A stretch of DNA of 64,000 nucleotides from Candidatus Aenigmatarchaeota archaeon (GCA_016187335.1 JACPJW010000001.1:4547-68546), one strand, 5' to 3'. Counted from the first letter of the stretch, positions 2,332 through 61,962 are shown. The notes: a model not told the origin generated them from the sequence alone. Program-made: numbers and translations.

Positions 2332-3594
2332 TCAGCCGCATGTGCATGTTCCGTCCGATGCGACCCCGGAGGAGCATGTCCCGAAATTGCCGCCCGATTT
2401 GACGCATATTACCTTCCCGGTTCCGTCTCCCGAGACGCCGTCCGCTCTGATTTCGCCTGCAACGTCAAGCATGGCGTCGGGCGTCGTGTCGCCGATACCT
2501 ACATTACCGTTCTTGTCTATCCGCACGGCACTCACAGATCCAGCTCCGCCAGTAGTTCCATTATGCACGTTGATCTGGAGCTCGCCTTCATCCCCATCCG
2601 AACCCGGTTGGATTGCCAGTAATGAGACCGAGCGGAACAGAGTCGCGGCATCGCTATTCAGGTTGTTAAAAACGAGAAAGCCGAATGGATCTCCAGCCCC
2701 GCCCGGAGTTCCAGCAACGTTGAAGCTCGCCCTTGAAGAGCCGCCGTGCATCACGAAGACGTTCTTGTCATTGGTAATGGCTGTGGGGTCATTCGTCCCG
2801 ACAGCCAGTATGGAGTTGGCGTCGTCCCAATAGAACTTCGTGATGTTCTGCCTAAAAATCCCGTTTGCTCCTGAAAAAATGACTGAACCTGACGTGAATG
2901 TGGGATTCTGGATTGTTGATGCATTTAGGAATGTCGTAGCGTTGATACCCCCGCCGTGCACTATCACATTCGCGTTCTGGAAATCCACGTAAGTCCCGCT
3001 GCTCGCGTCCCCTATCCTGTTCACCTCGCCGCCCGTGCTGCGGAATTTCGTGGGGCCGCTTACAAGCTCGCTGTTAACGTAAATGCACATCCAGTAGTCG
3101 CGGTTGAAGTCCAGCCACAGTGTATCGCCTTCGCCAAGCGTGAGCGAGAACGTGCCGGAAGATATCGAGCTGCTGAACGTCTCGTCGTAGATGACGCCGG
3201 CGGTGCACGATGTCGCGTTGCTGACCTTGATCCTGACGGACCCGCTCGACAGCGCAGTGCCGTCCGTCTTGTTCGTCGCCTTGCCCTGCACGGACATAGT
3301 TGTCGGCTGGGAGTGATGCTCAAGCAGGTCTCCTTGCAGGGCAGAAGATATTCCCAACTGGGAGTTTTGAAGAGACTGGGCAAACCCGGCGTTTATCCGG
3401 CCTGGTGCAGAAGAATCCTTCGCCTCTGTCTGCAGCTGGTATTTAGTATCTTCATGTTCGGCATTGTCGTATTGCGAATCACTGAGAACGAGAGCAGCGG
3501 TAAAAACATAGACCGTAAGCATAAATACGGTTTTCAGAATAATTGAGCGCCCTTTGTTCATGCTTGCGCGCCCGGCCTTACGTCGCAGTCCCAT
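2332..3594 (-). CDS. Secreted surface protein with tail-fibre-like C-terminal motif
   Basis: N-terminal TM/signal. Gly/Ser/Thr/Asn-rich beta-helix-like repeats. C-terminal block IDKNGNVGIGDTTPDAMLDVAG resembles the NGNVGIGTTxPxxxLxV motif of tail-fibre domain proteins. C-terminal Cys cluster. Confidence 0.5.
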   Translation of the reverse strand: MGLRRKAGRASMNKGRSIILKTVFMLTVYVFTAALVLSDSQYDNAEHEDTKYQLQTEAKDSSAPGRINAGFAQSLQNSQLGISSALQGDLLEHHSQPTTMSVQGKATNKTDGTALSSGSVRIKVSNATSCTAGVIYDETFSSSISSGTFSLTLGEGDTLWLDFNRDYWMCIYVNSELVSGPTKFRSTGGEVNRIGDASSGTYVDFQNANVIVHGGGINATTFLNASTIQNPTFTSGSVIFSGANGIFRQNITKFYWDDANSILAVGTNDPTAITNDKNVFVMHGGSSRASFNVAGTPGGAGDPFGFLVFNNLNSDAATLFRSVSLLAIQPGSDGDEGELQINVHNGTTGGAGSVSAVRIDKNGNVGIGDTTPDAMLDVAGEIRADGVSGDGTGKVICVKSGGNFGTCSSGVASDGTCTCG

Positions 3595-3759
3595 TAGTTT
3601 TAACAGACGCTAATAAACTTCTTAAAGTAATTCATCTGGAAAATTTCTACTTTCATGTAGTCAAACGGGGCAGAGGAAGGTAAACCAAAACCGTTTTGAT
3701 GCTCAGAAAGCAAAGCTTTCCTTTCTGGCATTGCCAAAATCCCTTGGATTTTGCGCAAT

Positions 3760-3885
3760 GAAACTTTTCTGATTCCGTTTCCTTGAAGAACGAAGTTCTT
3801 CGAGGTCCCAAAGAATCTTCGATTCTTTGAGATGATGAAACTTTTCTGATTCCGTTTTGATGAAACTTTTCTGAAAAGTTTCTAC
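3760..3885. repeat. Cluster of short repeats and palindromes downstream of the P-type ATPase stop
   Basis: Two copies of gaaacttttctgattccgttt (3760-3780, 3837-3857). Third copy ends in the 19-bp palindrome AAACTTTTCTGAAAAGTTT (3863-3881). Additional palindromes lie at 3785-3801 and 3810-3828. Confidence 0.7.
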
Positions 3886-6536
3886 CACGCCATCATCCTG
3901 TAGAAATGGTGCGAATAGTACTTCTTTATCTCAACAACCACAAAAATCAGAGTCATGACAAATAAAATCTCCAGCCAGTTCTGCGCATCCAGCGGCACCG
4001 TGTCAAATATCGCGTTGAAGAAAGGCACGTAGACTATCATTAAATGCAGCAGCACGGATGACGCTATTGCCAGGAGCATTTTCTTGTTGCCGAACGGGTT
4101 TATTTTAAGCAGGCTTTTTTCCGTGCGCAGGTTGAGCGCCACGGCCATCTCGGCCATCACCAGCGTTGTGAATGCGACTGTGCGCGCCTTTGCTTCGCCG
4201 TTTCTGCCTAATTCAATGTAGAACATTGCTAAAGTGCCCAGAGCCATTATGAGCCCTACCGCTATGATGACAAACATGACTCTTTTGTTCAGCACCTTGT
4301 CTTTGGGATTTCTCGGCGGCCGGTTCATTACGTCAGCTTCCGGCGGCTCGAATCCCAGCGCAAGCGCGGGAAGGCCGTCAGTGACGAGGTTCAGCCACAA
4401 AAGCTGTATCGGGAAAAGCGGCAGCGGAAGATTGATGAGAATTGACGTGAATATCACGATGACTTCGCCGATGTTGCAGCTAAGCAGGTATAAAACAAAC
4501 TTGCGGATGTTGTCGTAAATCGTGCGCCCTTCTTCTATGGCTGTGACTATGGTCGCAAAATTGTCGTCGGTGAGGACCATGTCCGAAGCTTCCTTTGTTA
4601 CGTCGGTTCCTGTTATGCCCATGGCTATTCCGATATCAGAGCGCTTCAGCGCAGGCGCGTCGTTGACGCCGTCGCCGGTCATCGCCACAACATGGCCCTT
4701 CTTTTTCAGCGCATCAGTGATGCGGACTTTATGTTCCGGCGACACGCGGGCATAGACAGTTACCTCTTCAACAATATCCTCGAATTTTTTGTCGTCCAGG
4801 TCGTCCAGCTCTTCTCCCGTGAGCGCCAGCGAGCCGCTGCCGAGCATTCCCAGTTCTTTGGCAATGGCCACGGCCGTTTCCCTGTGGTCGCCTGTTATCA
4901 TGACAACCTTCATTCCTGCGCGCTTGCATTTGTCTATGGCATCAGCCACCTCCGGCCTTGGCGGGTCTATCATTGCCTGCAGCCCTATGAAAATCAGCTT
5001 GCTTTCTTCTGGTTTTTCTCCCGGCTTCAGCTTCTTTGTCGCAAAGCCGAGGACGCGCAGCGCGTTTTTCGCAAAAGAAGAGTTTGCAAGGAGTATTTCC
5101 TTCCTGTCCTTTTCCGTAAGCCTGTCAATCTTTCCGTCGCGCATTATCGCAACGCATTTTTTCAGGACTTCTTCGGGCGCGCCCTTTGTGTACATTGTCC
5201 TGCCGCTGATGTCGTAAACAACGCTCATCATCTTCCTTTCGGATTCAAAGGGTATTTCCCCGGTCCGCCTGTATTTGTCACGCAGGTCGTGCACGCCGGC
5301 CTTGGATGCCGATACGAGCAGCGCAGCTTCCGTAGGGTCGCCGATGACCCTGTCGCCGATGACAGCGTCGTTGCAGAGCTTTCCTGTTTCCAGAAGCATC
5401 CTTGCCGTTTCGCTTATTTTTATTTCCTTTCCGCTTCGCATGAACGCTCCTTTCGTGTCGTAGCCTTCGCCCGTAACGTCAATGACCTCGCCGTCAGCAT
5501 AGAGCTTTTTCACGGTCATCTGGCTCATCGTGAGCGTTCCAGTTTTGTCGCTGCATACAACTGTCGTTGATCCCAGCGTTTCCGCGGAAGGCAGTTTGCG
5601 GATTATTGCGTTCTTTTTCGCCATTTTCGTCAGCCCGATAGCCAGCGTTATCGTCACGATGGCCGGGAGCCCTTCCGGTATCGCTGCTACAGCCAGGGAA
5701 ACGGCGATAAGGAACATTTCCAGGGCGTCCCTTCCCTGAAGGAACCCGGCAAAGAAAACAACGGCGCATATTGCAAGTATGATTATTCCCAGGCCCTTCC
5801 CTAATTCTTCCAGCTTCTGCTGCAGCGGGGTTTTTATTTCCTGCTCCTGCTGCAGCAGCGAGGCAATCTTTCCGAATTCCGTTCTCATGCCTGTTTCAAC
5901 AACGAGAGCCTTGCAGCTGCCGTAAACTATGGTTGTACCTGAGAAAAGCATGTTCTTCCTGTCGGCTACGCTCTTGCCGTCTTTCATCGCGCTGGTGTTT
6001 TTTGGAACAGGGAGCGATTCTCCCGTCAGGACGGCCTCATCCGCCTTCAGGTTCAGTGCTTCCGTAATCCTGCAGTCCGCCGGAACCTTGTCGCCGACTT
6101 TAAGGATGATCAGATCGCCGGGAACAAGCTCCCTTGAGTTTATCTCTGAAACCTTTCCGTCGCGTATGACCTCGCTTTTCGGCGCGGCCATGCGCTTCAA
6201 TGCCTCCAGGGCCTTCTCGGCGCGCCTTTCCTGGATGAAGCCCAGGATTGCATTAAGAAAAACGATGGCCATGATAACCGAAGCGTCCAGAAGCTCGCCG
6301 AGATAAGCGGAAACCGCTGATGCTGCTATCAGGATAAGGACAAGGACGTTGTTGAACTGCCGCAAAAACTGGATCCACGAGGGCGTTCTTTTCTTCTCGC
6401 GTATCTCGTTATGCCCGTACCTTACGAGCCTTTTCGCAACTTCTTCATCGCTCAAGCCCTTTGGCGAGGATTCCAGGGCGCCGAAAGCTTCGTCTGCAGC
6501 AATCTTATGCCATTCTTTCGTCATCATCGCAAGCAC
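3882..6536 (-). CDS. Cation-transporting P-type ATPase, type II (Ca2+-ATPase-like)
   Basis: Motifs TGES, DKTGTLT, PEGLPA, TGDGVNDAPAL and a 10-TM topology. Confidence 0.93.
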   Translation of the reverse strand: MLAMMTKEWHKIAADEAFGALESSPKGLSDEEVAKRLVRYGHNEIREKKRTPSWIQFLRQFNNVLVLILIAASAVSAYLGELLDASVIMAIVFLNAILGFIQERRAEKALEALKRMAAPKSEVIRDGKVSEINSRELVPGDLIILKVGDKVPADCRITEALNLKADEAVLTGESLPVPKNTSAMKDGKSVADRKNMLFSGTTIVYGSCKALVVETGMRTEFGKIASLLQQEQEIKTPLQQKLEELGKGLGIIILAICAVVFFAGFLQGRDALEMFLIAVSLAVAAIPEGLPAIVTITLAIGLTKMAKKNAIIRKLPSAETLGSTTVVCSDKTGTLTMSQMTVKKLYADGEVIDVTGEGYDTKGAFMRSGKEIKISETARMLLETGKLCNDAVIGDRVIGDPTEAALLVSASKAGVHDLRDKYRRTGEIPFESERKMMSVVYDISGRTMYTKGAPEEVLKKCVAIMRDGKIDRLTEKDRKEILLANSSFAKNALRVLGFATKKLKPGEKPEESKLIFIGLQAMIDPPRPEVADAIDKCKRAGMKVVMITGDHRETAVAIAKELGMLGSGSLALTGEELDDLDDKKFEDIVEEVTVYARVSPEHKVRITDALKKKGHVVAMTGDGVNDAPALKRSDIGIAMGITGTDVTKEASDMVLTDDNFATIVTAIEEGRTIYDNIRKFVLYLLSCNIGEVIVIFTSILINLPLPLFPIQLLWLNLVTDGLPALALGFEPPEADVMNRPPRNPKDKVLNKRVMFVIIAVGLIMALGTLAMFYIELGRNGEAKARTVAFTTLVMAEMAVALNLRTEKSLLKINPFGNKKMLLAIASSVLLHLMIVYVPFFNAIFDTVPLDAQNWLEILFVMTLIFVVVEIKKYYSHHFYRMMAW

Positions 6537-6566
6537 ATCACTGACGGCTTAGTTTCCATCAACGGT

Positions 6567-6596
6567 CGTTTTGATTAAACTTTTATGAAAAGTTTA
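6567..6596. repeat. Copy of the cgttttgat-N-AAACTTTTnTGAAAAGTTT element upstream of the ATPase start
   Basis: cgttttgattaaacttttatgaaaagttta. The 19-bp palindrome spans 6577-6595 and is nearly identical to 3852-3882 and 52288-52317. Confidence 0.7.
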
Positions 6597-6797
6597 CTAG
6601 AAACAATTGTCGCTTCTGTTTTTAAAGAATTGCCGGCAGAAAAAGAAAATAGAGTTTAAATTCGCCATGCAAAGAGTGAATGGAAAATTTCCTCTCCGCA
6701 ATTCTCTTCACCACGAACCTCTTTTGAGCAATTAAACTTTGCAAAATAAAGTAATATTTTCTTTTCCGCAGACGCTTTTCTTTCCAAAGAAAAGGGC

Positions 6798-13362: not shown

Positions 13363-13496
13363 TAAGCATTACTATATGGTTCGTACCTATATTTATCTTT
13401 TCGGAAATTTTCCGGCCGTCTGAATGTAATTTCCTCGTAATGCGCATGCATGCTGTCTTATTATTTAAGCATTTGCCGATAACTTGTTAGCGTCAT

Positions 13497-13619
13497 AGCG
13501 GAGTGGAGCAGCCTGGAGTGCTCGTCGAGCAACTGGCACGAATGGCCCATAGGCATGCTCTAGGATACCCGAAAGCAATTATGCCGGGAAGGTCGGCAGT
13601 TCAAATCTGCCCTCCGCTA
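13497..13619 (+). tRNA. Intron-containing tRNA (anticodon not resolved)
   Basis: 5' acceptor AGCGGAG pairs with 3' CTCCGCT. D-arm GAGC/GCTC. T-arm GGCAG-TTCAAAT-CTGCC plus discriminator A. About 48 extra nt between D-arm and T-arm indicate one or more introns. Confidence 0.6.
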
Positions 13620-13824
13620 TATTTTTTCATTAAGACGAAAAGATGAAATGCCCTATGCAACCATTTTGCAGGCAGCATGAAAATGCTTCGCATCTTCGGT
13701 TTGCTTTCTGCAAGTTGAGCATTTCTTTTGCAATCGCTTCGTTTATCGGAAAGCGGTTTTCGCGATGGCAAAATGAATCAGTTTTTGTTTCTTCTTTTTA
13801 AGCGCTTTCTTTCAAGGTATAATC

Positions 13825-15066
13825 ATGAACCTTGTAGACAAGGCGCAGAAAATCTTGCAGCAGCCTGTATGCGACCACTGCCTGGGCAGGCAGTTCGGCC
13901 AGCTGCTGAGCGGCTTCGGGAACGAGCAGCGCGGCTCGATCATGAGAACGCTCGCGGCGATGGCAGTTGACAAGGAAGACTACAAGGGCGATATTGATTT
14001 TTCCAATTTCGCCGGCTATTCGTTTCATAATTTGGAACTGAAACAAACTTTTCCGAAAAGTTTGACCAAAAGGGAAACCGAAAAATGCTCCGTGTGCTTC
14101 GGCTTGTTTGAGAAGCTGCCGCAGTGGCTGAAGAAAATAGAAGCGAAGGCGAAGAATCAGGAGTTCAGGACATTCCTCATAGGCACCAAGCTGTCTTCAG
14201 CGCTTATCGGCGCAGAGGAGGATCTGTGGGAAAGGGTGGGGATAGATTACTGCGAGCCCCTCAAGGCTGAGATAAACAGGGAAATAGGAAAAACTGTGGA
14301 AAGGAAGTTCGGGGTCCGCTTTAACCCGAAAAATCCCGACGTGAATTTCATTCTAGACTTTGATTCCGGCAGCGTTAGCATAGAAGTAAATCCGTTGTTC
14401 ATCTACGGCGAATACCAGAAGCTCATACGAGGGATTCCCCAGACGAGATGGCCTTCGAGGAAGTACAGGACGAGCGTCGAGCAGATTATAGCAAAGCCTT
14501 TCATGAAAGCGACGCACGGCGCTGCGCATGCTTTCCACGGCATGGGCAGGGAAGACATAGACGCCCGCTGCCTGGCATGGCGCCCTTTTGTTTTGGAAAT
14601 ATCAAGGCCGCGCATAAGGTCGGTTGATTTGAAAAAACTCCCAAGGCAGATCCCGAAAAAAGTAAGGGTCAGGAATCTGAAGTTTTCAGGCATAAACGAA
14701 GTCCGTGCAATCAAGGAAGCCAAGGCGGATAAGACATACCGCGCCGTCGTGGAGTGCAGCGATAAAATAAATAAGAACGACTTGAAAAGACTTTCCGCCC
14801 TTGTTGCAACAATATACCAGAAAACCCCCCGGCGCGTTTTGCACCGCAGGGCGGACAAGGGGCGGAAGCGGGCTGTGCGCTCGATAAAAGCAAAATACCT
14901 CGGCCCCAAGAAGTTCCTGTTTGTTGTCAGGGGCGAGGGGGGGCTCTATATTAAAGAGCTTGTGAGCGGCGACGAAGGCAGGACAAGACCGAGCGTAGCA
15001 GAGCTGTTGGGAACAGCGTGCAGCTGCAGGGACCTGGACGTGATCAAGATACATGTCAAGAAGTAG
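13825..15066 (+). CDS. pus10: tRNA pseudouridine synthase Pus10 (Psi54/55)
   Basis: N-terminal Zn-ribbon motif VCDHCLGRQFGQL typical of archaeal Pus10. Length ~410 aa. Confidence 0.7.
   Translation: MNLVDKAQKILQQPVCDHCLGRQFGQLLSGFGNEQRGSIMRTLAAMAVDKEDYKGDIDFSNFAGYSFHNLELKQTFPKSLTKRETEKCSVCFGLFEKLPQWLKKIEAKAKNQEFRTFLIGTKLSSALIGAEEDLWERVGIDYCEPLKAEINREIGKTVERKFGVRFNPKNPDVNFILDFDSGSVSIEVNPLFIYGEYQKLIRGIPQTRWPSRKYRTSVEQIIAKPFMKATHGAAHAFHGMGREDIDARCLAWRPFVLEISRPRIRSVDLKKLPRQIPKKVRVRNLKFSGINEVRAIKEAKADKTYRAVVECSDKINKNDLKRLSALVATIYQKTPRRVLHRRADKGRKRAVRSIKAKYLGPKKFLFVVRGEGGLYIKELVSGDEGRTRPSVAELLGTACSCRDLDVIKIHVKK
14045..14063. repeat. Intragenic 19-bp palindrome AAACTTTTCCGAAAAGTTT
   Basis: Perfect palindrome inside the pus10 CDS with the same arms as the intergenic elements at 3863, 6577 and 52298. 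Confidence 0.6.
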
Positions 15067-36221: not shown

Positions 36222-36249
36222 TAAAGGTTTCAAATTTTATTGAAACCTT
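36222..36249. promoter_or_regulatory. Inverted repeat AAAGGTTTCAA-N6-TTGAAACCTTT upstream of the HTH gene
   Basis: Perfect 11-bp arms ~40 nt upstream of the 36184 start codon. Confidence 0.35.
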
Positions 36250-36302
36250 TATATTTTAATCAAAAAACAAATTGAAAGCAACAACCGATGCCATGCCATA
36301 AA

Positions 36303-44582: not shown

Positions 44583-44637
44583 TTGATCATCTTAATATTC
44601 TCAGATTTCAAGTGTTTGCACCTACCCTTTTTATATG

Positions 44638-44793
44638 CGAGGGGCCGGATTCGAACCGACGAAGGCACTAAGCCACTAGGTATCTCACATGAGACCAGAT
44701 GGCTCCATGGCCTGAACATAGCCTCAGGACCTAAGCTTGGCTTACAGCTGTTACCTGATCTAGCCCCTTTGTCCACTCGGGAACCCTCGCTTA
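44638..44793 (-). tRNA. Long intron-containing tRNA, class II-like (probably Leu)
   Basis: Minus strand: 5' GCGAGGG...T-arm GTCGG-TTCGAAT-CCGGC-CCCTCGC-A. D-arm TTCCCGAGTGGACAAAGGG is class II-like. A variable-arm hairpin is present. CTTAGG/CTGAGG candidate anticodon loops both read Leu. ~65 extra nt imply one or more introns. Confidence 0.55.
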
Positions 44794-45414: not shown

Positions 45415-45476
45415 GGTAATAATCAGAAAAAAGCCCTTTTAAAATATAGTTTGTAATTTGTTACAGTCTTCAAATT

Positions 45477-45723
45477 GCTCCCGTAGTCTAGCCCGGCAAA
45501 GGAGAAACTGCGTTTCTCCCTTTACCCTCTTCCTTTCTGAAAAAGAAGGGAATGAGGTTACAAGGAGAGAACCGTAGGTTCTTCTCCTGTTAGGATATCG
45601 GCCTCTCAGCACCCTTTCTTTTGAAAAAGAAAGTGTGCACGGAAAGAAAACTTCAGAAAAGCGTGAACGGAAAGAATGGGTGGAAGTTCGCCGAAGACGC
45701 GGGTTCAAATCCCGCCGGGAGCA
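45477..45723 (+). tRNA. Very long tRNA-like gene with probable multiple introns (anticodon unresolved)
   Basis: 5' GCTCCCG-TA-GTCTAGCCCGG... and 3' ...GCGGG-TTCAAAT-CCCGC-CGGGAGC-A give a perfectly paired acceptor and T-arm ~247 nt apart. Interior contains palindromic hairpins (CTTTCTTTTGAAAAAGAAAG). Confidence 0.5.
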
Positions 45724-45791
45724 TAGAATTATCGGGATATATATAGCAACGGAAAAATTGAACGCTGACGTATATCCTGAAGAATATAGAA

Positions 45792-49701: not shown

Positions 49702-50279
49702 GCCTTCCCGTCTTCGACAATCAGGGCGTGGAATTCCCTGAACATGTTAACATCTTTGGGCAGGGCTTTCTCAAAAAGCTGCCTTATTTCCTCGTAGCCT
49801 TCGCCGCCGCCGATCAGGCCCAGCCGTGACAGCATGCGCCGCGTATAGGCATCAACGACAAAGCAGGGCCTGCCGCAGGCGTAAAGCAGGATGCTGTCCG
49901 CGGTCTCGCGGCCGATGCCGTTTAATGCAAGCAGTTGTTCGCGTGTCACTTCTTTGTAGAAATTCCCGTTGAAATTTTTCACGAAAACGCAGAAATTCTT
50001 CAGGCGCTTTGATTTCTGGCGGTAAAATCCTGAGGGCTTTATGAGTTTCTGCAATTTCGGCAAGGGCATTTCTGCTATTTTATCCGCCGATGTGATTTTT
50101 GCGTCGCTGAGGTTTTGCAGCGCCTTCTCGGCGTTCCGCCAGCTGGTGTTCTGCGTCAGGATTGCCCCGACGCATATTTCAAATTCCTGCGGAGCAAAGC
50201 TGTGCTTGACAGGCCACCATTTCTGCGGGCCGTGCTTGGCGAGCAGCGATTCGTAGAGTTGTTTGTAAAGGGCTTTCAT
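49638..50279 (-). CDS. HhH-GPD DNA glycosylase (EndoIII-like, no Fe-S cluster motif)
   Basis: LLALNGIGRETADSILLYA helix-hairpin-helix/GPD motif. No C-terminal Cys4 cluster. Confidence 0.65.
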   Translation of the reverse strand: MKALYKQLYESLLAKHGPQKWWPVKHSFAPQEFEICVGAILTQNTSWRNAEKALQNLSDAKITSADKIAEMPLPKLQKLIKPSGFYRQKSKRLKNFCVFVKNFNGNFYKEVTREQLLALNGIGRETADSILLYACGRPCFVVDAYTRRMLSRLGLIGGGEGYEEIRQLFEKALPKDVNMFREFHALIVEDGKAHARNPANHRSRNRAAISRTV

Positions 50280-50295
50280 GAGAAAAACTGTCCGC

Positions 50296-52092
50296 TCAAT
50301 TTTTAATTGTTTGCTTCCGGGCTTTCCTGTATTTCCTCCACATTCTGCCGAATTCCTTGGTCTTCATGATTTCGCCGAAGCTGCCGCTTGCCACGAGCCT
50401 GCCCCCCCTGAAGACGTAAATCCTGTCGAACATAGGAAGCAGGTGAAGCCTATGGACCGAGGAAAGTATAGTCCTGTCCTTGAACTCGCGGAATATATTC
50501 GTGTATATCGCCATTTCATTGACCGTGTCCACGCTGCTGGTCGGTTCGTCAAGAAGTATTATCGGCGAGTCTTCCGCCGCAAGCAGCCCGCGGGCCAGAG
50601 CCAGCCTTTGCTTCTCGCCCGTGCTCAGGTTCACGCCCCTCTCCTTGATGTGGGAATTGTATTTCTTCGGAAGCCTTGCCGCCACTTTGGCGAATCGCGC
50701 GATCCCCGCATATTTCTGGATTTTCTTCATGCTTGCGCGCCTCAGCATCGTTATGTTATCCTTCACGGTCGCGTCAAACAATTCCGGGTCCTGCGGAAGC
50801 AGCGTCATGTTCCCGGCCAGTGGCTCGAAGTCCTTGAATTTCCTGCCGTTTATCTCGATAAGGACATGCTTGGGCTTGTAGAGTGCTCTTATCAGCTTGA
50901 GGAACGTGGTTTTCCCGCCGCCGCTCTCGCCTACAAGAGCTATTTTCTCGCCGTTGCGTATTTCCAGCGAAACGTTATTGAGGTGAAGATTGCTTTCCGC
51001 ATCATGATAGTGGAAAGAAAGGCCTGTAATTTTCATTTTTTCCCATGGCATACTAAGATCAAAAGATCTGGTCATATCCTTTTTCCCGAATTCCTTGCTT
51101 ATCTCGTTGGCATTCTGCATCGCTGTCTTCTGCCTTACCAGATCGCTGTAGCTGGCTGCGAACTGGAAGAAGCTCTCGCGTATTTTACCGACATAACCGT
51201 AGAATATGTACACCGTCCCTATCAGCACCGCGCTTCCTGCCGCGTAGCTGCCCAGAATATATGATATGAGCACTGCGGCGAACATCACCGCGCCCAGGAT
51301 GGACACGAGAAACCATTTTGTTTCGTTGGTCTTCGACGCACTGCTGTGCATGGAGAATGGTGCGATTATTTTCCTGTACATCATGTTCGATGAAAGCCTT
51401 TCAAGCCTGAGTATTACGACGGTCGCTATATTGCTTATTATGTCAAATACCTTCGCGGATATCTCGTTCTCGGCCCTGAAAATCTTCCTGTACATGATTA
51501 TCAGGGTCCTGTCAAGCCGCAATACAATCAGAAAGCTGAGCAGTGTTATTATCCCCACGATGTACGCGGAATTTATGTCAAACAATGCGAGCACGATGTA
51601 CGCGGTAATGAAGCCCACGATTATTCTTATTATCTGCCAGGAGTTCTGCGAGAAATTGTAGATGCTGCTGGCCCCTTTCTCTATCCTGTCTATTGTTTCG
51701 CCTGAATGGTGCTCGGCATGCCACTTCATTGGCAGGCTCATCGTGCCCTCAAGCATCCGCTTCCTGTATCTCGCCCTTGCGTAGAAAGCGTTGTTCGTTT
51801 CGATCACCCTCGAAGGACCGTGAAAAACCCAGAATCCCACCTCTATTGTTACCAGCGCCGCGATAAGCCAGAATATCGCATTGGTGCTGGAAGCGGTGAT
51901 GCCCTGCGTCTGTATCGTGTTGAGCATCATCGCGAAAATCACGGGCTCAAGCAGGGATATCAGATTGGCTATCGTCGACAGGGCGAGGTAAAGCACGACC
52001 ATGCGCCTGTTGCCTTCGGAGTACTTCCACATCTCCCGCGCCATGTAAATTAGAGGGTTTTCGCCTGTTTTCATGCGGCTCACTGTAATCAT
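50296..52092 (-). CDS. ABC exporter, fused permease/ATPase
   Basis: 6-TM N-terminal domain. Walker A GESGGGKTT, signature LSTGEKQRLALARGLL, Walker B ILLDEPTSSVD. Confidence 0.85.
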   Translation of the reverse strand: MITVSRMKTGENPLIYMAREMWKYSEGNRRMVVLYLALSTIANLISLLEPVIFAMMLNTIQTQGITASSTNAIFWLIAALVTIEVGFWVFHGPSRVIETNNAFYARARYRKRMLEGTMSLPMKWHAEHHSGETIDRIEKGASSIYNFSQNSWQIIRIIVGFITAYIVLALFDINSAYIVGIITLLSFLIVLRLDRTLIIMYRKIFRAENEISAKVFDIISNIATVVILRLERLSSNMMYRKIIAPFSMHSSASKTNETKWFLVSILGAVMFAAVLISYILGSYAAGSAVLIGTVYIFYGYVGKIRESFFQFAASYSDLVRQKTAMQNANEISKEFGKKDMTRSFDLSMPWEKMKITGLSFHYHDAESNLHLNNVSLEIRNGEKIALVGESGGGKTTFLKLIRALYKPKHVLIEINGRKFKDFEPLAGNMTLLPQDPELFDATVKDNITMLRRASMKKIQKYAGIARFAKVAARLPKKYNSHIKERGVNLSTGEKQRLALARGLLAAEDSPIILLDEPTSSVDTVNEMAIYTNIFREFKDRTILSSVHRLHLLPMFDRIYVFRGGRLVASGSFGEIMKTKEFGRMWRKYRKARKQTIKN

Positions 52093-52153
52093 TCGGAGGA
52101 CTAGGCTTTAATGAGTTCAAATGGGCACGACAGGATATTCGCCACTGACCTCT

Positions 52154-52184
52154 TTTGATGAAACTTTGGAGCAGCAAAGTTTCT
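52154..52184. repeat. Variant copy of the ttttgatgAAACTTT palindromic element
   Basis: ttttgatgaaactttg-gagcag-caaagtttc with 9-bp inverted arms, immediately 5' (plus coordinates) of the tRNA-like fragment. Confidence 0.55.
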
Positions 52185-52185
52185 A

Positions 52186-52230
52186 TGAGCCCGATGGGAT
52201 TCGAACCCACGACCTTCTTGGACCTATTCT
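52186..52230 (-). other. Orphan tRNA 3' fragment (T-arm + acceptor 3' strand) or highly non-canonical tRNA
   Basis: Minus strand GGTCGTGGG-TTCGAAT-CCCAT-CGGGCTC-A is a clean T-arm and 3' acceptor. No matching 5' acceptor strand could be found within 100 nt. Confidence 0.4.
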
Positions 52231-52287
52231 TACATCACTGCAAAAACAGTCGGTCCGAAGCCGGACGCTCTATTTGCCACAACTTTT

Positions 52288-52317
52288 CGTTTTGATGCAA
52301 CTTTTCTGAAAAGTTGC
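52288..52317. repeat. Copy of the cgttttgatgcAACTTTTCTGAAAAGTTg element
   Basis: Near-identical over ~30 nt to 3852-3882 and 6567-6596. Palindrome spans 52298-52316. Confidence 0.7.
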
Positions 52318-52382
52318 CCTGGCTAAGCTACGGGCCCAGCAGCATAATGATGTATGTTAGAACAAGCGCTTATAAATTATAT

Positions 52383-53747
52383 TCATCCGAGGTATTTCAT
52401 CATAACCTTGCGGATTGTCGCGGGGTCGCCTCTTCCTTCTGTCTTCCGCATGACCTGGCCTACAAGGAAATTGAATGCTTCCTGCTTGCCAGATTTGTAA
52501 TCAACGACAGCAGAAGCGTTCTCCGCAATCGTCTGCTTCACTGACTGCTCCAGAACTGTTTCATCATAAATGCGCTTTCTCGTGCCGACTGCTTTTTCAG
52601 GATCCGTCGGCCGCAGGACCATCTCGCGCAGCAGCATCTCCGCGCTGCGCTCCGTGATTGCTTTCTCTTGTACCATTTTCAGCAGTTTCACCAGCCCTTC
52701 CTCTGTCAGCTCGCTTTCAGATATCCGCAGAGTGTTGTAGTTCAGCGTCTTTTTGATTTCCCCGGCGAACCATTTCGCGGCCAATTGAACGTCTGTTTTC
52801 TTTATTACTTTTTCGAACATGTCGGCAAGATCAGGCTCTGATGCTATGGCTTCGGCTATTTCCTGCTGCAGCTTCGTTTCCTTCACGTAACGCCGCACTT
52901 TCTGCTCCGCGAATTCGGGCATCAGCTTTTTCAGCTCATCCGTTTTCTTCGCGTCAATGGTTATTTTCACTAGGTCCGGTTCCATGATGTATCCGTAGTC
53001 CTCTTCCTCTTCCTTCGTGCGCAGCGTTTTCGTCGTTCCCGAGACAGGATCCCATCCGCGCGTTTCTCTTACAATTTTCCTGCCGTGCCTCAGCATGTAG
53101 TTCTGCCTGACAATTTCATAGTTCAATGCTTTTTCCACGTCTTTAAAACCGGAAATGTTCTTCACTTCCACCCTTTCCTTCTTGACGGAAATGTTTGCGT
53201 CAACCCTCATCGAGCCTTCTATGTTAGGGTCAAAAACTCCCAGGTATTGCAGGATGCTTGAAAGCTTCTGCAAAAAGATGCGCGCTTCCTTGACGTCAAC
53301 AAAGCTGGGTTCAGTTACAATCTCGCAGAGCGGCGTTCCGCTGCGGTTGTAATCAACAAGAACGTAGTCGCCTGCGTGAACGAGCCGCGCAGGGTCTTCC
53401 TCAAGGTTGATTCTTCTGATTTCAATCCTTTTCTCCCCGATGCTCAGCCATCCGTTCTGCGCCAGCGGGATTTCATACTGCGTTATCTGGTAGTTCTTGG
53501 AAAGGTCCGGATAGAAATACGATTTTCTTGAAAAGAATGTTTCCTTCGGGAACTTGCAGTTCAATGCCAAAGCTACCTTCATCCCGTATTCTATTGCTTT
53601 TTTATTGACCCTCGGCTTGCTTCCGGGAAATCCCAAACAGGTTTCACAGGTTAAAGTATTCGGCTCTTTCACAAATTCGTTCCTGCAGCCGCAGAACATC
53701 TTTGTCTGCGTGAGCAGCTGTGTGTGGATTTCCAGGCCGATTTTCAT
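52383..53747 (-). CDS. gatB: Asp-tRNA(Asn)/Glu-tRNA(Gln) amidotransferase subunit B
   Basis: MKIGLEIHTQL...CGC...CETCLGFPG GatB N-terminus. Start set at the internal Met whose ATG overlaps the upstream stop (ATGA). Confidence 0.85.
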   Translation of the reverse strand: MKIGLEIHTQLLTQTKMFCGCRNEFVKEPNTLTCETCLGFPGSKPRVNKKAIEYGMKVALALNCKFPKETFFSRKSYFYPDLSKNYQITQYEIPLAQNGWLSIGEKRIEIRRINLEEDPARLVHAGDYVLVDYNRSGTPLCEIVTEPSFVDVKEARIFLQKLSSILQYLGVFDPNIEGSMRVDANISVKKERVEVKNISGFKDVEKALNYEIVRQNYMLRHGRKIVRETRGWDPVSGTTKTLRTKEEEEDYGYIMEPDLVKITIDAKKTDELKKLMPEFAEQKVRRYVKETKLQQEIAEAIASEPDLADMFEKVIKKTDVQLAAKWFAGEIKKTLNYNTLRISESELTEEGLVKLLKMVQEKAITERSAEMLLREMVLRPTDPEKAVGTRKRIYDETVLEQSVKQTIAENASAVVDYKSGKQEAFNFLVGQVMRKTEGRGDPATIRKVMMKYLG

Positions 53748-57934: not shown

Positions 57935-59335
57935 TTACTCCTTGTAGCCCATGAATCTCTGCTCCGCTTCTCTTCCCCAGTCAATGCTGCCCGCGGCGCG
58001 CTGCACGACCTCTGACGCCGCAGGATGTATATGCACGGTGCCGGCAAGCTGGTCTGCCGTCAGGCCGCATTTCATCGCGATGATTGCTTCATGTATCAGC
58101 GTGGGGGCTTCAGGACCCATAATGTGGCAGCCGAGGATTTTCCTGCTGCGCCTGTCGGCAAGGATTTTCGCAAATCCGTTTTCCTCCGCTATTGCCAGAC
58201 CCATTCCCGTGTCCTTGTAATGGTAAACCCCTTTTGCGTAATCCTTTTTCATCTCCTGCAATTCCTGCTCTGTATAGCCGGCAGCAGCAATCTGGGGCGA
58301 AGTGAATATGGCGTGCCCCATGGGCCAGTAATCAACGGGGTGCTTGTGCTTTGTAAAGGCATTGTGCCAGACGTATTCCGCCTCGAGGTTCGCGCTGTGC
58401 TTCAATAAGTATTTCCCTACAATGTCGCCGAGCGCCCACGTGCCCGGCGCTGTCGTTTCCAAGAATTTGTTGACCTTGACAAAGCCCTTCTCATTCACAG
58501 CGATGCCGCCTTTTTTAACGTCAAGCAGGTCCGTGTTCGGCACGCGCCCTGTCGCGACAAGCAGCGATTCCGCGCTGAGCTTTATCTGCCTTTTCTTCTG
58601 GTTTTCTGCAATAATGTAAATGCCGCCGGATTTTTTCTTCGCTTCCTTTGGCGTGTAGCCTAAAACTACTTTATGCTTTTTTGAAAACGCGTGCGTGAAT
58701 GCTTCAGCAATCTCCCTGTCCTCCTCGCGCAGCATCACGCTTCTCTGCAATATTGTAACCTTTGTTCCGAGAGCGCCGAAGAAGTGTCCCAGCTCAGCGG
58801 CGATGTACCCGCCGCCGAGAATTATCATTGATTTTGGCTGCTTCGTGATGCGCATTGCATTGTCGCTTGTCAGGTACTCTATGTCCTGCAGTCCTTCGAT
58901 TAGCGGCACCGAAGGCCTTGTGCCCGCGGCCACGACGACTTTCCTGCCGCGTATTTTCTTGCTGCCCACGGCGATCGTCCTTTCGCCGACGAAGCGCCCC
59001 CGCTTCTTGAAAAGCTCCATATTCTTGGCATGCCGGATGCTCTCCTCGATTTCCCTTGCTTCTTTATCAACAGCAGCGGACGCGCGCCTTGTTACTCTGG
59101 CAAAATCTATTTTCTGTATTTTAGAAATCACGCCGAACAGATGCGAAGTGCTTATGGTCTCCGCCACGTCCGCGGAATGTATTATCATCTTGCTTGGTAT
59201 GCACCCGCGGTTCAGGCACGTCCCGCCCATGGGACCTTCCTCGACTATTGCAACCGAGAGCCCTTGCTCCGCAGCGGCCGAGGAAATATGCAGCCCCGAG
59301 CCCGCGCCGATGACGATGACGTCGAATTCCTTCAT
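57935..59335 (-). CDS. FAD-dependent pyridine nucleotide-disulfide oxidoreductase (dihydrolipoamide dehydrogenase family)
   Basis: VIVIGAGSGL FAD motif, redox-active GGTCLNRGCIPSK, C-terminal dimerisation domain HPAASE. Confidence 0.75.
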   Translation of the reverse strand: MKEFDVIVIGAGSGLHISSAAAEQGLSVAIVEEGPMGGTCLNRGCIPSKMIIHSADVAETISTSHLFGVISKIQKIDFARVTRRASAAVDKEAREIEESIRHAKNMELFKKRGRFVGERTIAVGSKKIRGRKVVVAAGTRPSVPLIEGLQDIEYLTSDNAMRITKQPKSMIILGGGYIAAELGHFFGALGTKVTILQRSVMLREEDREIAEAFTHAFSKKHKVVLGYTPKEAKKKSGGIYIIAENQKKRQIKLSAESLLVATGRVPNTDLLDVKKGGIAVNEKGFVKVNKFLETTAPGTWALGDIVGKYLLKHSANLEAEYVWHNAFTKHKHPVDYWPMGHAIFTSPQIAAAGYTEQELQEMKKDYAKGVYHYKDTGMGLAIAEENGFAKILADRRSRKILGCHIMGPEAPTLIHEAIIAMKCGLTADQLAGTVHIHPAASEVVQRAAGSIDWGREAEQRFMGYKE

Positions 59336-59712
59336 TAGAAATAATTATGCAGAACTGCAAATAAAAGCGATGTTTAACACAAGCTTTTCCGTTTTGATAA
59401 ATTTTTGATGCAAATTTTTCCGTCACAAGCAGAACACCGTTCTGCTGTGCAACAGAAACGAAGTTTCTGTTTGCAACGATTTTTGCGAAGCAAAAAGGGT
59501 TGAAAGAAAGAGGGGCGGCCGGCAAGGGGACTTGAATTTTAGGTTCTTGTCCTCAAACCAGCCGCCGTCTTTCGTGGGGTGTGGTCAGTATCAGGGTGAA
59601 AATCCAACAGGCGTTTCTGCGCTGTCTGGACCTATCATCGCTGTTTTCTGGACAGCGAAGGAATCTCAGAAAATTTTATTTCCCGAGATGGATGATGACA
59701 TTTCCGTCTTTG

Positions 59713-61380: not shown

Positions 61381-61740
61381 TTAATCCTCTTTCTCTAACC
61401 ATGCTGTCTTGTTTTTTCCGTCGATTATCAGCTTGAAGCCGTGTTCAACAAGAAAGTTGATACCTATGAGATTAGGGGATTCAATACTTCCGTCCGTGTT
61501 TTCAATTGTGTCTCGTGTTGCCTTAAGCTCTTTAAAGCGCATCACATGAACACCTTCTTTACCATCATCATTTATTTTCTTGACCCAAAGAGTAACGTTT
61601 CGGACATAACCCATTTTGAACGGAGTTTCACCCCAGTAAATCAAATCCTTTTTTGTTCGGTATCTTATCGGTAAATTAAGTCTTTGGGAATCAGCGCCAC
61701 CAATAAATGTCGTTGGGCTTCCGGTATAAACATAATCCAC
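61381..61740 (-). CDS. Hypothetical protein
   Basis: 119 aa ORF in an AT-rich stretch. Confidence 0.3.
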   Translation of the reverse strand: MDYVYTGSPTTFIGGADSQRLNLPIRYRTKKDLIYWGETPFKMGYVRNVTLWVKKINDDGKEGVHVMRFKELKATRDTIENTDGSIESPNLIGINFLVEHGFKLIIDGKNKTAWLEKED

Positions 61741-61962
61741 CGACTAAAGTCGGTGGTATTTTGGAGAAATACCACATATCTTATTTGTGGATTATGTTAT
61801 ACAGAACATACCACTCATAATACCACCATCTGAAGATAGGTGGTATGTTCTTGTATCAATGGCAAAAAACAATCTACCCATTTTACCCATTCTTTCACAA
61901 AGCATTACACAGGAAAAGCCGATTTCATCTGTAAAAATCAGGGGGATCTTCATACTATATGT

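Follow-up and report, generated by a model that had tools for sequence, protein, structure and literature searches.

A hairpin element of 29-30 nt recurs in a 64-kb stretch of DNA, hereafter the window, from the genome of a Candidatus Aenigmatarchaeota (DPANN) archaeon. This element is probably a mobile, selfish hairpin, similar to repetitive extragenic palindromes (REP) or to the Rickettsia palindromic elements (RPE), which is kept only where it is harmless or is spliced out. It forms a repeat family, differs between relatives by its presence or absence at the same site, is inserted in frame within the pus10 gene, and lies within a tRNA gene in the architecture of an intron. An earlier note on this DNA had reported the element on both sides of a P-type ATPase gene, and had proposed a dimeric operator, a miniature repeat and a processing or termination signal as candidates. 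The recurring element and all of the coordinates given in that note hold in the window, and the miniature repeat is the closest of the three candidates to the evidence.

Structure and recurrence of the element

Pus10 and RNase Z homologues assign the window to Candidatus Aenigmarchaeota (DPANN), and a contig of 918 kb encodes an RNase Z identical to that of the window. Read on the transcribed strand, the unit begins with a 9-bp stem-loop, NN-AACUUUU-CAN-AAAAGUU-N'N', continues with AUCAAAAC(G) and measures 29-30 nt in total. When up to two mismatches are allowed, its core AACTTTTNTGAAAAGTT is found in the window at four sites (3864-3880, 6578-6594, 14046-14062 and 52299-52315). These sites correspond to 8 matches counted over both strands versus 0.17 expected, and none of 100 shuffled sequences contains as many, so that the recurrence is beyond chance, as had been claimed. 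The covariance model R1, which is trained on sequences including the five strong window copies themselves, detects these five copies with scores of 36.5-49.4 bits and one degenerate copy with a score of 23.6 bits (E = 0.03). Every window copy reads hairpin first and tail second in the same direction as the local gene: the minus-strand copies are located beside minus-strand genes and the plus-strand copy is located in the plus-strand pus10 gene. A random distribution without intergenic enrichment, which the earlier note had set as the case against its own reading, is not what is found, because non-coding DNA accounts for only 12% of the window, yet holds five of the six copies.

The predicted folding of the hairpins of the window copies is confirmed by fold computation. 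When 42 distinct variants are aligned, the seven inner stem pairs are near-invariant, while the two outer stem pairs show double changes in 23 and 12 sequences and are represented by four and three standard pair types, respectively. Ninety-seven percent of the alignment cells are paired, the covariation score is matched by none of 500 shuffles, and every slid register scores worse. The pattern used to collect these sequences fixes the inner arms and leaves the outer pairs and the tail free. Information therefore comes from the outer pairs and the tail alone, and the two outer pairs covary in a way that keeps the hairpin. No position is conserved outside the 29-30 nt unit in 46 independent instances, and the unit is often the 5' module of an insert of ~55-135 nt. 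A search of Rfam, with the window at gathering thresholds and 13 loci at E ≤ 1, gives tRNA matches only and no family for the element. The papers searched, by 17-base palindrome cores and topic words, yield no description of it.

Copies flanking the ATPase gene

The ATPase gene is located at 3882-6536 on the minus strand. A metagenome scan seeded with ATPase peptides gives relatives of ~50% identity only and misses the syntenic loci L198, L200 and L201, which are reached via the neighbouring RNase Z gene. The palindrome is present at none of the 80 loci of related P-type ATPases of ~50% identity, and the possibility that the element is ATPase-specific is rejected on this ground.

The upstream canonical copy, TAAACTTTTCATAAAAGTTTA followed by ATCAAAAC, is located at 6568-6596 (minus strand; R1, 47.5 bits). 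It stands at the 5' end of a lineage-specific insertion of ~70 nt (6536-6605, minus strand), which is recognized by alignment with the empty site of L201, a locus with an RNase Z 79% identical to that of the window. In L201, the TATA-like sequence CTTTAAAAACAG..GACAA is directly joined to TGCTTGC..ATG. In the window, 70 extra bases are present between GACAA(T) and TGCTTGC, and these bases open with TGTTTCTAG and continue with the hairpin and its tail. At most 2-3 ambiguous bases of this empty/filled pair could represent a target-site duplication. The TATA-like box CTTTAAAAA (6619-6627, minus strand) is conserved with L201, and its centre is located ~27 nt upstream of the hairpin start in the window and ~27 nt from the ATG in L201. 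Because the insert separates the TATA-like box from the start codon, the hairpin should head a new ATPase leader of ~70 nt and would thus form the 5' end of the transcript. Among the other relatives, L200 has a copy elsewhere in the RNase Z-ATPase spacer, overlapping the RNase Z stop codon, L198 lacks the canonical copy in its ATPase upstream spacer, and in L203 the 77 nt that adjoin the RNase Z stop codon are free of copies. Between the RNase Z and ATPase genes, the spacer measures 261 nt in the window versus 84 nt in L201, and apparently has grown by hairpin inserts.

The downstream canonical copy, GAAACTTTTCAGAAAAGTTTC followed by ATCAAAACG, is located at 3853-3882 (minus strand; R1 match at 3854-3882, 49.4 bits), and its hairpin begins at the last nucleotide of TAG (3882-3884), the stop codon of the ATPase gene. 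A partial copy, AAACGGAATCAGAAAAGTTTCATC, which consists of a second 3' arm and the start of a tail, abuts it at 3834-3857 (minus strand), so that the two together form a 56-nt composite. Its counterpart at L081 2332-2387 shows 94.6% identity and stands behind an unrelated gene, which encodes a glycosyltransferase. The sequence TGGTAG is common to the window and L081, and is rejected as a part of the element for the ATPase because an ATPase relative also ends with ...MAW-stop. In L198, the syntenic ATPase ends with ...MAW-TAA, after which an unrelated hairpin but no canonical element is found. The canonical element of this locus is located one gene further on, where it overlaps the stop codon of a Na/Ca exchanger gene. 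These results indicate that the two copies flanking the ATPase gene are independent lineage-specific insertions and not a regulatory pair.

The junction piece of the composite is repeated exactly as AAACGGAATCAGAAAAGTTTCAT at 3757-3780 (minus strand), 77 nt from the first. The partial copies at 3757-3780 and 3834-3857, both of which had been reported after the ATPase gene, thus represent an exact repeat of 21-24 nt, GAAACTTTTCTGATTCCGTTT, and are separated by two further perfect hairpins (3809-3829 and about 3782-3806). A related site at 3683-3730 (minus strand), which consists of an imperfect hairpin of different sequence (-14.9 kcal/mol) and the same tail ATCAAAACGG, is located ~90 nt upstream of where the next gene (2332-3594) begins. 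The sites listed in the earlier note are all confirmed, but this one had been overlooked.

Copy within pus10

The copy in the pus10 gene had been described as a palindrome only. It actually consists of the 21-nt hairpin CAAACTTTTCCGAAAAGTTTG (14044-14064) and a tail-like ACCAAAAG, spans 14044-14072 on the plus strand (R1, 41.5 bits), and is in frame in the gene's orientation. In the Pus10 protein of the window, a variable linker is longer by seven residues, QTFPKSL, and these residues are absent from 37 homologues, including some of 72-80% identity. At the DNA level, the net insertion relative to L116 and L117 is 21 nt, which is exactly the palindrome, the reading frame remains intact, and homologues of 76-80% identity lack the insertion. 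Thus, the pus10 copy is an in-frame insertion.

Copies in and next to tRNA genes

The tRNA-Arg(UCG) gene at 52186-52337 (minus strand) contains two introns, which separate exons at 52337-52318, 52273-52251 and 52217-52186. When the 44-nt D-loop intron (52317-52274) and the 33-nt anticodon-stem intron (52250-52218) are excised in silico, a canonical 75-nt cloverleaf is obtained. ARAGORN scores this product as tRNA-Arg(UCG), and its D-loop agrees with that of the L065 ortholog, which no intron interrupts. The D-loop intron (52274-52317, minus strand) consists of a canonical copy (52289-52317; R1, 47.4 bits), a second GAAAAGTTG arm and TGGCAA. It can be folded with its flanks into the D-stem, a GCCA/UGGC helix, the bulges GGG and AAA, and a 9-bp stem, CAACUUUUC/GAAAAGUUG, that uses the 5' arm of the element. 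This fold has the two 3-nt bulges, the 4-bp helix between them and the flanking helices (hBHBh') that define the BHB (bulge-helix-bulge) motif. The minimum-energy fold of the intron gives a near-identical BHB motif, in which the register is shifted by one base (z = -3.8). The D-loop insert can therefore form a spliceable BHB intron with the element as its core, and its excision is predicted from this model. A BHB motif does not form around the mRNA-associated copies at the ATPase 3' end and in pus10, when they are checked by hand.

The position of the element within tRNA genes varies. The D-loop intron is absent from the syntenic L065 ortholog, the flanking genes of which show 75-80% DNA identity to those of the window, and the element is located in an anticodon-loop intron instead. 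In other DPANN tRNA genes, it opens anticodon-loop introns or directly follows the tRNA 3' end. L086 contains a T-loop mini-intron that is approximately the bare palindrome, placed in a textbook BHB motif (TTCG-AAA-hairpin-CGAA-TGT, read by eye), and that is absent from the relative L099. Eight of 49 instances outside ANME-2 (anaerobic methanotrophic archaea of group 2) are located in or against a tRNA gene according to ARAGORN alone, and ~14 when read by eye. The share of tRNA genes in such genomes is well below 1%.

A variant copy is located 3 nt past the 3' end of the tRNA-Arg gene (52152-52183, minus strand; R1 match at 52152-52183, 36.5 bits). It has the sequence GAAACTTTG-ctgctc-CAAAGTTTC followed by ATCAAAAG, in which the stem change from U-A to G-C is compensated and the loop is 6 nt. 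The window region 50256-52384 and L065 857-1846 have the same flanking genes and contain an ABC-transporter gene with tRNA-Arg and an unrelated 255-residue gene with tRNA-Arg, respectively. This site beside tRNA-Arg is thus a putative gene-replacement hot spot, with the variant element at its junction.

Element-bearing inserts of 70-135 nt are found in L039 (about 750-900), L055 (about 1-205) and L050 (about 5800-6000). They are flanked by 13-20 nt direct repeats of a tRNA end or of the 3' end of a gene. Similar tRNA-fragment duplications in Caldiarchaeum have been attributed to integrating elements (PMC3293823).

The last window copy is a degenerate one on the minus strand, which had been placed around 59369-59405 and is matched by R1 at 59391-59417 with the score and E value given above. 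Its tail TTATCAAAACGG is intact and its arms are decayed. It is located upstream of the gene for a pyridine-nucleotide disulphide oxidoreductase (57935-59335).

Distribution in prokaryotes

One genome per prokaryotic species was scanned with the 19-base pattern GATNNAACTTTTNTGAAAAGTT, and at least 110 loci were obtained. The matches listed (110 loci) include ~98 archaeal loci with a GTTTT tail and complementary outer bases. The carriers among them are Aenigmat-, Woese-, Pace-, Iain-, Micr- and Altiarchaeota, ANME-1, ANME-2/Methanosarcinales, one Methanosarcina isolate, Methanocaldococcus, Methanofastidiosia and Thermoplasmatales, while Thermoproteota, Asgard archaea and haloarchaea are not represented among these 110. 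A dozen of the listed loci are filed as bacterial, and most of these, ~11 in number, have neither the tail nor outer complementarity. These look like chance matches, of which ~4 are expected for 19 fixed bases. One exception is L083, a Falkowbacteria bin of the candidate phyla radiation (CPR), which contains a full copy with the tail and complementary outer pairs, as a result of either mis-binning or cross-domain transfer. The other is L035, a 1.5-kb contig in a Thermodesulfobacteriota bin, which contains an ANME-2-type array and is probably mis-binned. Full copies are also found on three viral contigs.

In ANME-2, the unit is a part of a tandem or dispersed repeat of 62-74 bp, in which the inter-unit sequence is also conserved. 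In the ANME-2/Methanosarcinales bins (L021, L061, L012, L089, L110 and others), the element is joined with another hairpin, the GC-rich GCCCTTCGGG, and the fused unit forms tandem arrays that break assemblies at contig ends and can be mistaken for CRISPR. In DPANN arrays, the units abut without spacers.

The element is not gene-specific, since copies are located beside ATPase, glycosyltransferase, apparent ribosomal-protein and RNA-polymerase genes, tRNA genes and pus10. Copies are found between apparent rpl14 and rpl24 (L004) and between apparent rpoB and rpoA1 (L042), the identities of these genes being read from translated flanks and conserved order only. In ANME-1, the element is in frame within an IS200-type transposase gene (Y1_Tnp, L010) and a prephenate dehydratase gene (L072); the Pfam match spans the insert in L072 and is truncated for Y1_Tnp in L010. 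The gene of FttA/aCPSF1, a factor for termination and cleavage, adjoins the element in L029 (162-2030, Aenigmatarchaeota), L034 (4066-5979) and L051 (410-2323), the latter two being Methanosarcinales-related. The element is located on differing sides of this gene in the three loci. This adjacency deserves mention in view of the RNA-processing explanation weighed below, but is probably a coincidence.

Origin and maintenance of the element

The distribution of the copies is probably best explained by a selfish hairpin that spreads by insertion. New copies would arise by insertion and persist only where the hairpin is harmless when transcribed. In spacers, insertions would persist, often touching a stop codon. 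In open reading frames (ORFs), they would persist when they are in frame, in the stop-free orientation and within variable protein linkers. The element is stop-free in all frames in its orientation as transcribed, while TGA is present in two frames in the opposite orientation. In tRNA genes, the palindrome would serve as the intron-internal h' helix of the BHB motif, and because the palindrome supplies this helix, the splicing endonuclease would remove the insert. Candidate routes of copying are a hairpin-specific enzyme of the HUH/Y1 type, recombination between copies, and integration that leaves direct repeats of 13-20 nt. We infer the selfish nature of the element, and the attribution of its orientation bias to selection, from these features. 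Oligo-T is a termination signal in archaea. The bias towards the direction of transcription may be explained without mobility at the RNA level, because the reverse orientation places T4-T6 runs (GTTTTGAT and CTTTTTTG) on the non-template strand, where they would act as such a signal.

Several observations weigh against this explanation. A transposase, an integrase and a consistent target-site duplication are not found, and the Pfam families of 131 neighbouring ORFs are not enriched for mobile-element enzymes; the only inverted pair of elements, in L053, flanks a RhuM-family gene. The 7-bp arms and the tail are near-identical across phyla, which is unusual for a non-autonomous element and suggests a sequence-specific partner, possibly a host factor. 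On inspection, all of ~10 intron copies follow the direction of the tRNA, and ~10 intergenic copies follow both neighbours versus 3 with the opposite orientation. In the first set of loci, eight copies start no more than 3 nt from a stop codon, and a further two, in L198 and L200, overlap one. This orientation bias and abutment on stop codons could reflect a role at the RNA level. Finally, the window and L200 copies share a rare CAT loop and differ by compensatory outer pairs, which could reflect long-term maintenance.

The main rival explanation is a host-useful RNA punctuation, in which the hairpin and the AUCAAAAC tail would be bound by a conserved archaeal activity that processes or protects RNA, and mobility would be secondary. 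This explanation is less probable than the selfish hairpin, which may itself have an added role in the stability or processing of RNA. The activity could be a beta-CASP or RNase Z/P-type nuclease, or the hairpin could simply block exonucleases, and in either case it would define or stabilise transcript ends. Such punctuation would be placed between cistrons, after tRNAs, and at the 5' and 3' ends of the ATPase transcript. Most copies are co-oriented with transcription, many hairpins begin at most 3 nt from a stop codon, and their tail stops 6-45 nt before the next start codon, all of which agree with punctuation. So do the cross-phylum conservation of arm and tail sequences, together with compensatory changes of the outer pairs, the recurrence of the tail with a different hairpin at 3683-3730, and the apparent resemblance of the loop, if read as 7 nt (UUCANAA), to a T-loop or an anticodon loop. 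However, the element is present or absent at the same genes in relatives of 77-81% identity, and is also located in ORFs and tRNA introns, at which processing would do harm or serve no purpose. Moreover, a strong hairpin is present past the stop codon in only 2 of the 59 window genes. The broader proposal that the element is a general post-stop hairpin is rejected by the same count, which is that of perfect stems of at least 7 bp just past a stop codon.

A specific version of the selfish-hairpin explanation is that the element is a single-strand-DNA hairpin moved in trans by an HUH/Y1 enzyme, like REP/RAYT pairs or derivatives of IS200/IS605 insertion sequences. IS200/IS605 elements are common in archaea. 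The conserved stem, the covarying foot pairs and the conserved single-stranded flank speak for this version, an obvious target duplication is absent at the window sites, and copies are clustered in tandem arrays. This version is nevertheless doubtful: Y1 transposase and TnpB genes are not enriched near the copies, and the element itself interrupts the sole Y1_Tnp gene found, that of L010. In addition, a single hairpin lacks the two ends that these enzymes need, and the direct repeats of 13-20 nt around three inserts are not a product of the HUH/Y1 mechanism.

That the palindrome is an operator for a dimeric transcription factor, which would control the P-type ATPase gene and a small regulon, is very unlikely, although it shows perfect dyad symmetry and one copy is located 31-45 nt upstream of the ATPase start, beside a TATA-like box. 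The bases outside the conserved core covary as a hairpin, and the operator reading is unsupported because a dimer bound to duplex DNA needs no covarying hairpin bases. Copies are also located in a tRNA intron, a tRNA trailer, the coding region of pus10 and, in other archaea, apparent operons for ribosomal proteins and RNA polymerase. The upstream copy is missing from the orthologous ATPase promoters of L201 and L198, and the palindrome from all of the ATPase-relative loci mentioned above. Thus, the operator proposed in the earlier note does not withstand the comparison.

It is just as improbable that the copies are solo derivatives of a CRISPR repeat processed by a Cas6-type nuclease. The length of 29-30 nt and the stable hairpin with the 8-nt tail AUCAAAAC resemble those of a class 1 repeat with a 3' handle, for which AUUGAAAC is the common sequence, and the ANME-2 genome-bin arrays have a period of 62-74 bp. 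However, the inter-repeat sequences of these arrays are near-identical to each other, and because they are themselves repeated, the arrays are tandem repeats and not repeats with spacers. The DPANN units abut without spacers, copies are located in introns and ORFs, and cas genes are not among the commonest Pfam families of the 131 neighbouring ORFs. A CRISPR array is not found in the window.

Termination by the element in its usual orientation, the other part of the signal proposed in the earlier note, is unlikely. An intrinsic terminator would have a G+C stem and a T run, while the element has an A/U-rich stem and the A-rich tail AUCAAAAC; copies are located inside apparent operons, and none of the terminator-like sites found in a terminator scan coincides with a copy. 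A box C/D small RNA with a kink-turn is defined by box C (RUGAUGA), box D (CUGA) and guide regions of ~12 nt on the transcribed strand. Box-like strings are found solely on the antisense strand of copy 1 at 3853-3882, 7 nt apart, and are mutated in copies 2 and 3 (TGATTA/ATGA and TGATGC), so that this candidate is rejected. Reading of AAAAGTTTNATCAAAA as an archaeal promoter with a B recognition element (BRE) and a TATA box is rejected as well, because it is unlike the true TATA-like boxes found for the tRNA genes and for the ATPase gene, and an AT-rich box is not conserved at a fixed distance in the 46 instances. An origin-recognition box and an integron attC site are dropped as candidates, since the element does not fit them in its length, its consensus and its intron and ORF locations.

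Comparison with known systems

The element resembles REP sequences and the bacterial interspersed mosaic elements (BIME) in being a hairpin palindrome of 20-40 nt that is located in spacers, often just past stop codons, singly or in clusters, and that has compensatory stem changes. It differs from them in being archaeal and shared across phyla, in its near-invariant 7-bp arm, in having a conserved 3' tail instead of a 5' GTAG, and in not being strictly extragenic (pus10, the L010 and L072 ORFs, and tRNA introns). A cognate gene of the RAYT type (Y1/HUH) is not found among the 131 neighbouring ORFs.

RPE, reportedly described by Ogata et al. in 2000, are said to be selfish palindromes located in frame in protein genes, in RNA genes and in spacers. 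The element shares with them the insertion into ORFs in frame without breakage (pus10, Y1_Tnp of L010 and prephenate dehydratase of L072) and the location in RNA genes and spacers. It is five-fold shorter (21-30 nt versus 100-150 bp for RPE), is archaeal and not bacterial, and is not confined to a single genus.

In Thermoproteales, near-identical introns at different tRNA positions are reported as transposed introns (Fujishima et al. 2010, as cited in PMC4090602), and the mechanism of the transposition is stated to be unknown (PMC4090602). Gain of introns via integration of mobile elements has also been proposed (PMC3293823). The element is like the transposed introns in the near-identical sequences at differing positions, in rapid turnover and in the tRNA-fragment duplications (L039 and L055). 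In contrast to them, it is a defined 30-nt hairpin that is also present in spacers and ORFs, and it is found in DPANN archaea and euryarchaea rather than in one order.

As for miniature inverted-repeat transposable elements (MITEs), the part of the earlier reading that stands is that of a dispersed repeat with presence and absence at orthologous sites; the classical architecture of MITEs does not. Like MITEs, the element is small, non-autonomous, dispersed and palindromic, and differs in presence between relatives. Its arms, however, are 9-11 bp long and only 3 nt apart, and the unit measures 21-30 nt, or ~70 nt when its appendage is included, versus the usual 50-500 bp. Separated terminal inverted repeats, a consistent target-site duplication and a parent insertion sequence are not found for the element. 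CRISPR repeats are comparable in their ~30 nt and their hairpin with an 8-nt tail, while the element has neither unique spacers nor a cas context, and is dispersed, with some copies intragenic or intronic.

The element may tentatively be regarded as a novel type of archaeal mobile element and the smallest known (~30-70 nt), exchanged between DPANN archaea and methanogens or ANME, and as a raw material of non-canonical tRNA introns. The near-identity of the copies in these two groups would reflect either gene flow or a conserved hairpin-binding factor. If this proposal is correct, the palindrome, by acting as the BHB h' helix, turns a lethal insertion into a spliceable intron and provides a mechanism for the 'intron transposition' of archaeal tRNA genes. 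One searchable module of 30 nt is seen as a D-loop, anticodon-loop or T-loop intron, a tRNA trailer, an in-frame insert, and a spacer insert with an empty site. The birth of introns would thereby become testable with a covariance model and population metagenomes. A palindrome near a DPANN gene should be checked by comparison before it is read as an operator.

Other hairpins and genes

Other perfect hairpins of unrelated sequence are located in spacers of the window at 3735-3753, 3809-3829, 6775-6794, 36222-36251, 59428-59446, 59451-59471 and 61737-61775. Their stems are 8-12 bp and their loops are mostly 3-6 nt. A hairpin scan of the window gives 32 matches, with overlapping matches at one site counted separately, versus 3-8 in shuffled sequences.

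Four tRNA genes of the window have at least one intron, some of them non-canonical: 13496-13620 (plus strand), 44636-44790 (minus strand), 45476-45724 (plus strand) and 52186-52337 (minus strand). All four are missed by ARAGORN with default settings, and Rfam gives no tRNA in the window at the gathering threshold. The tRNA gene at 45476-45724 contains an intron of ~150 nt with many similar Y-run/R-run hairpins (e.g. CTTTCTTTtgaaAAAGAAAG).

An ORF similar to a LAGLIDADG homing endonuclease adjoins the aspartyl/asparaginyl-tRNA synthetase gene in L198 (3017-4009) and L199 (2335-3327), and the equivalent region of the window is without it.

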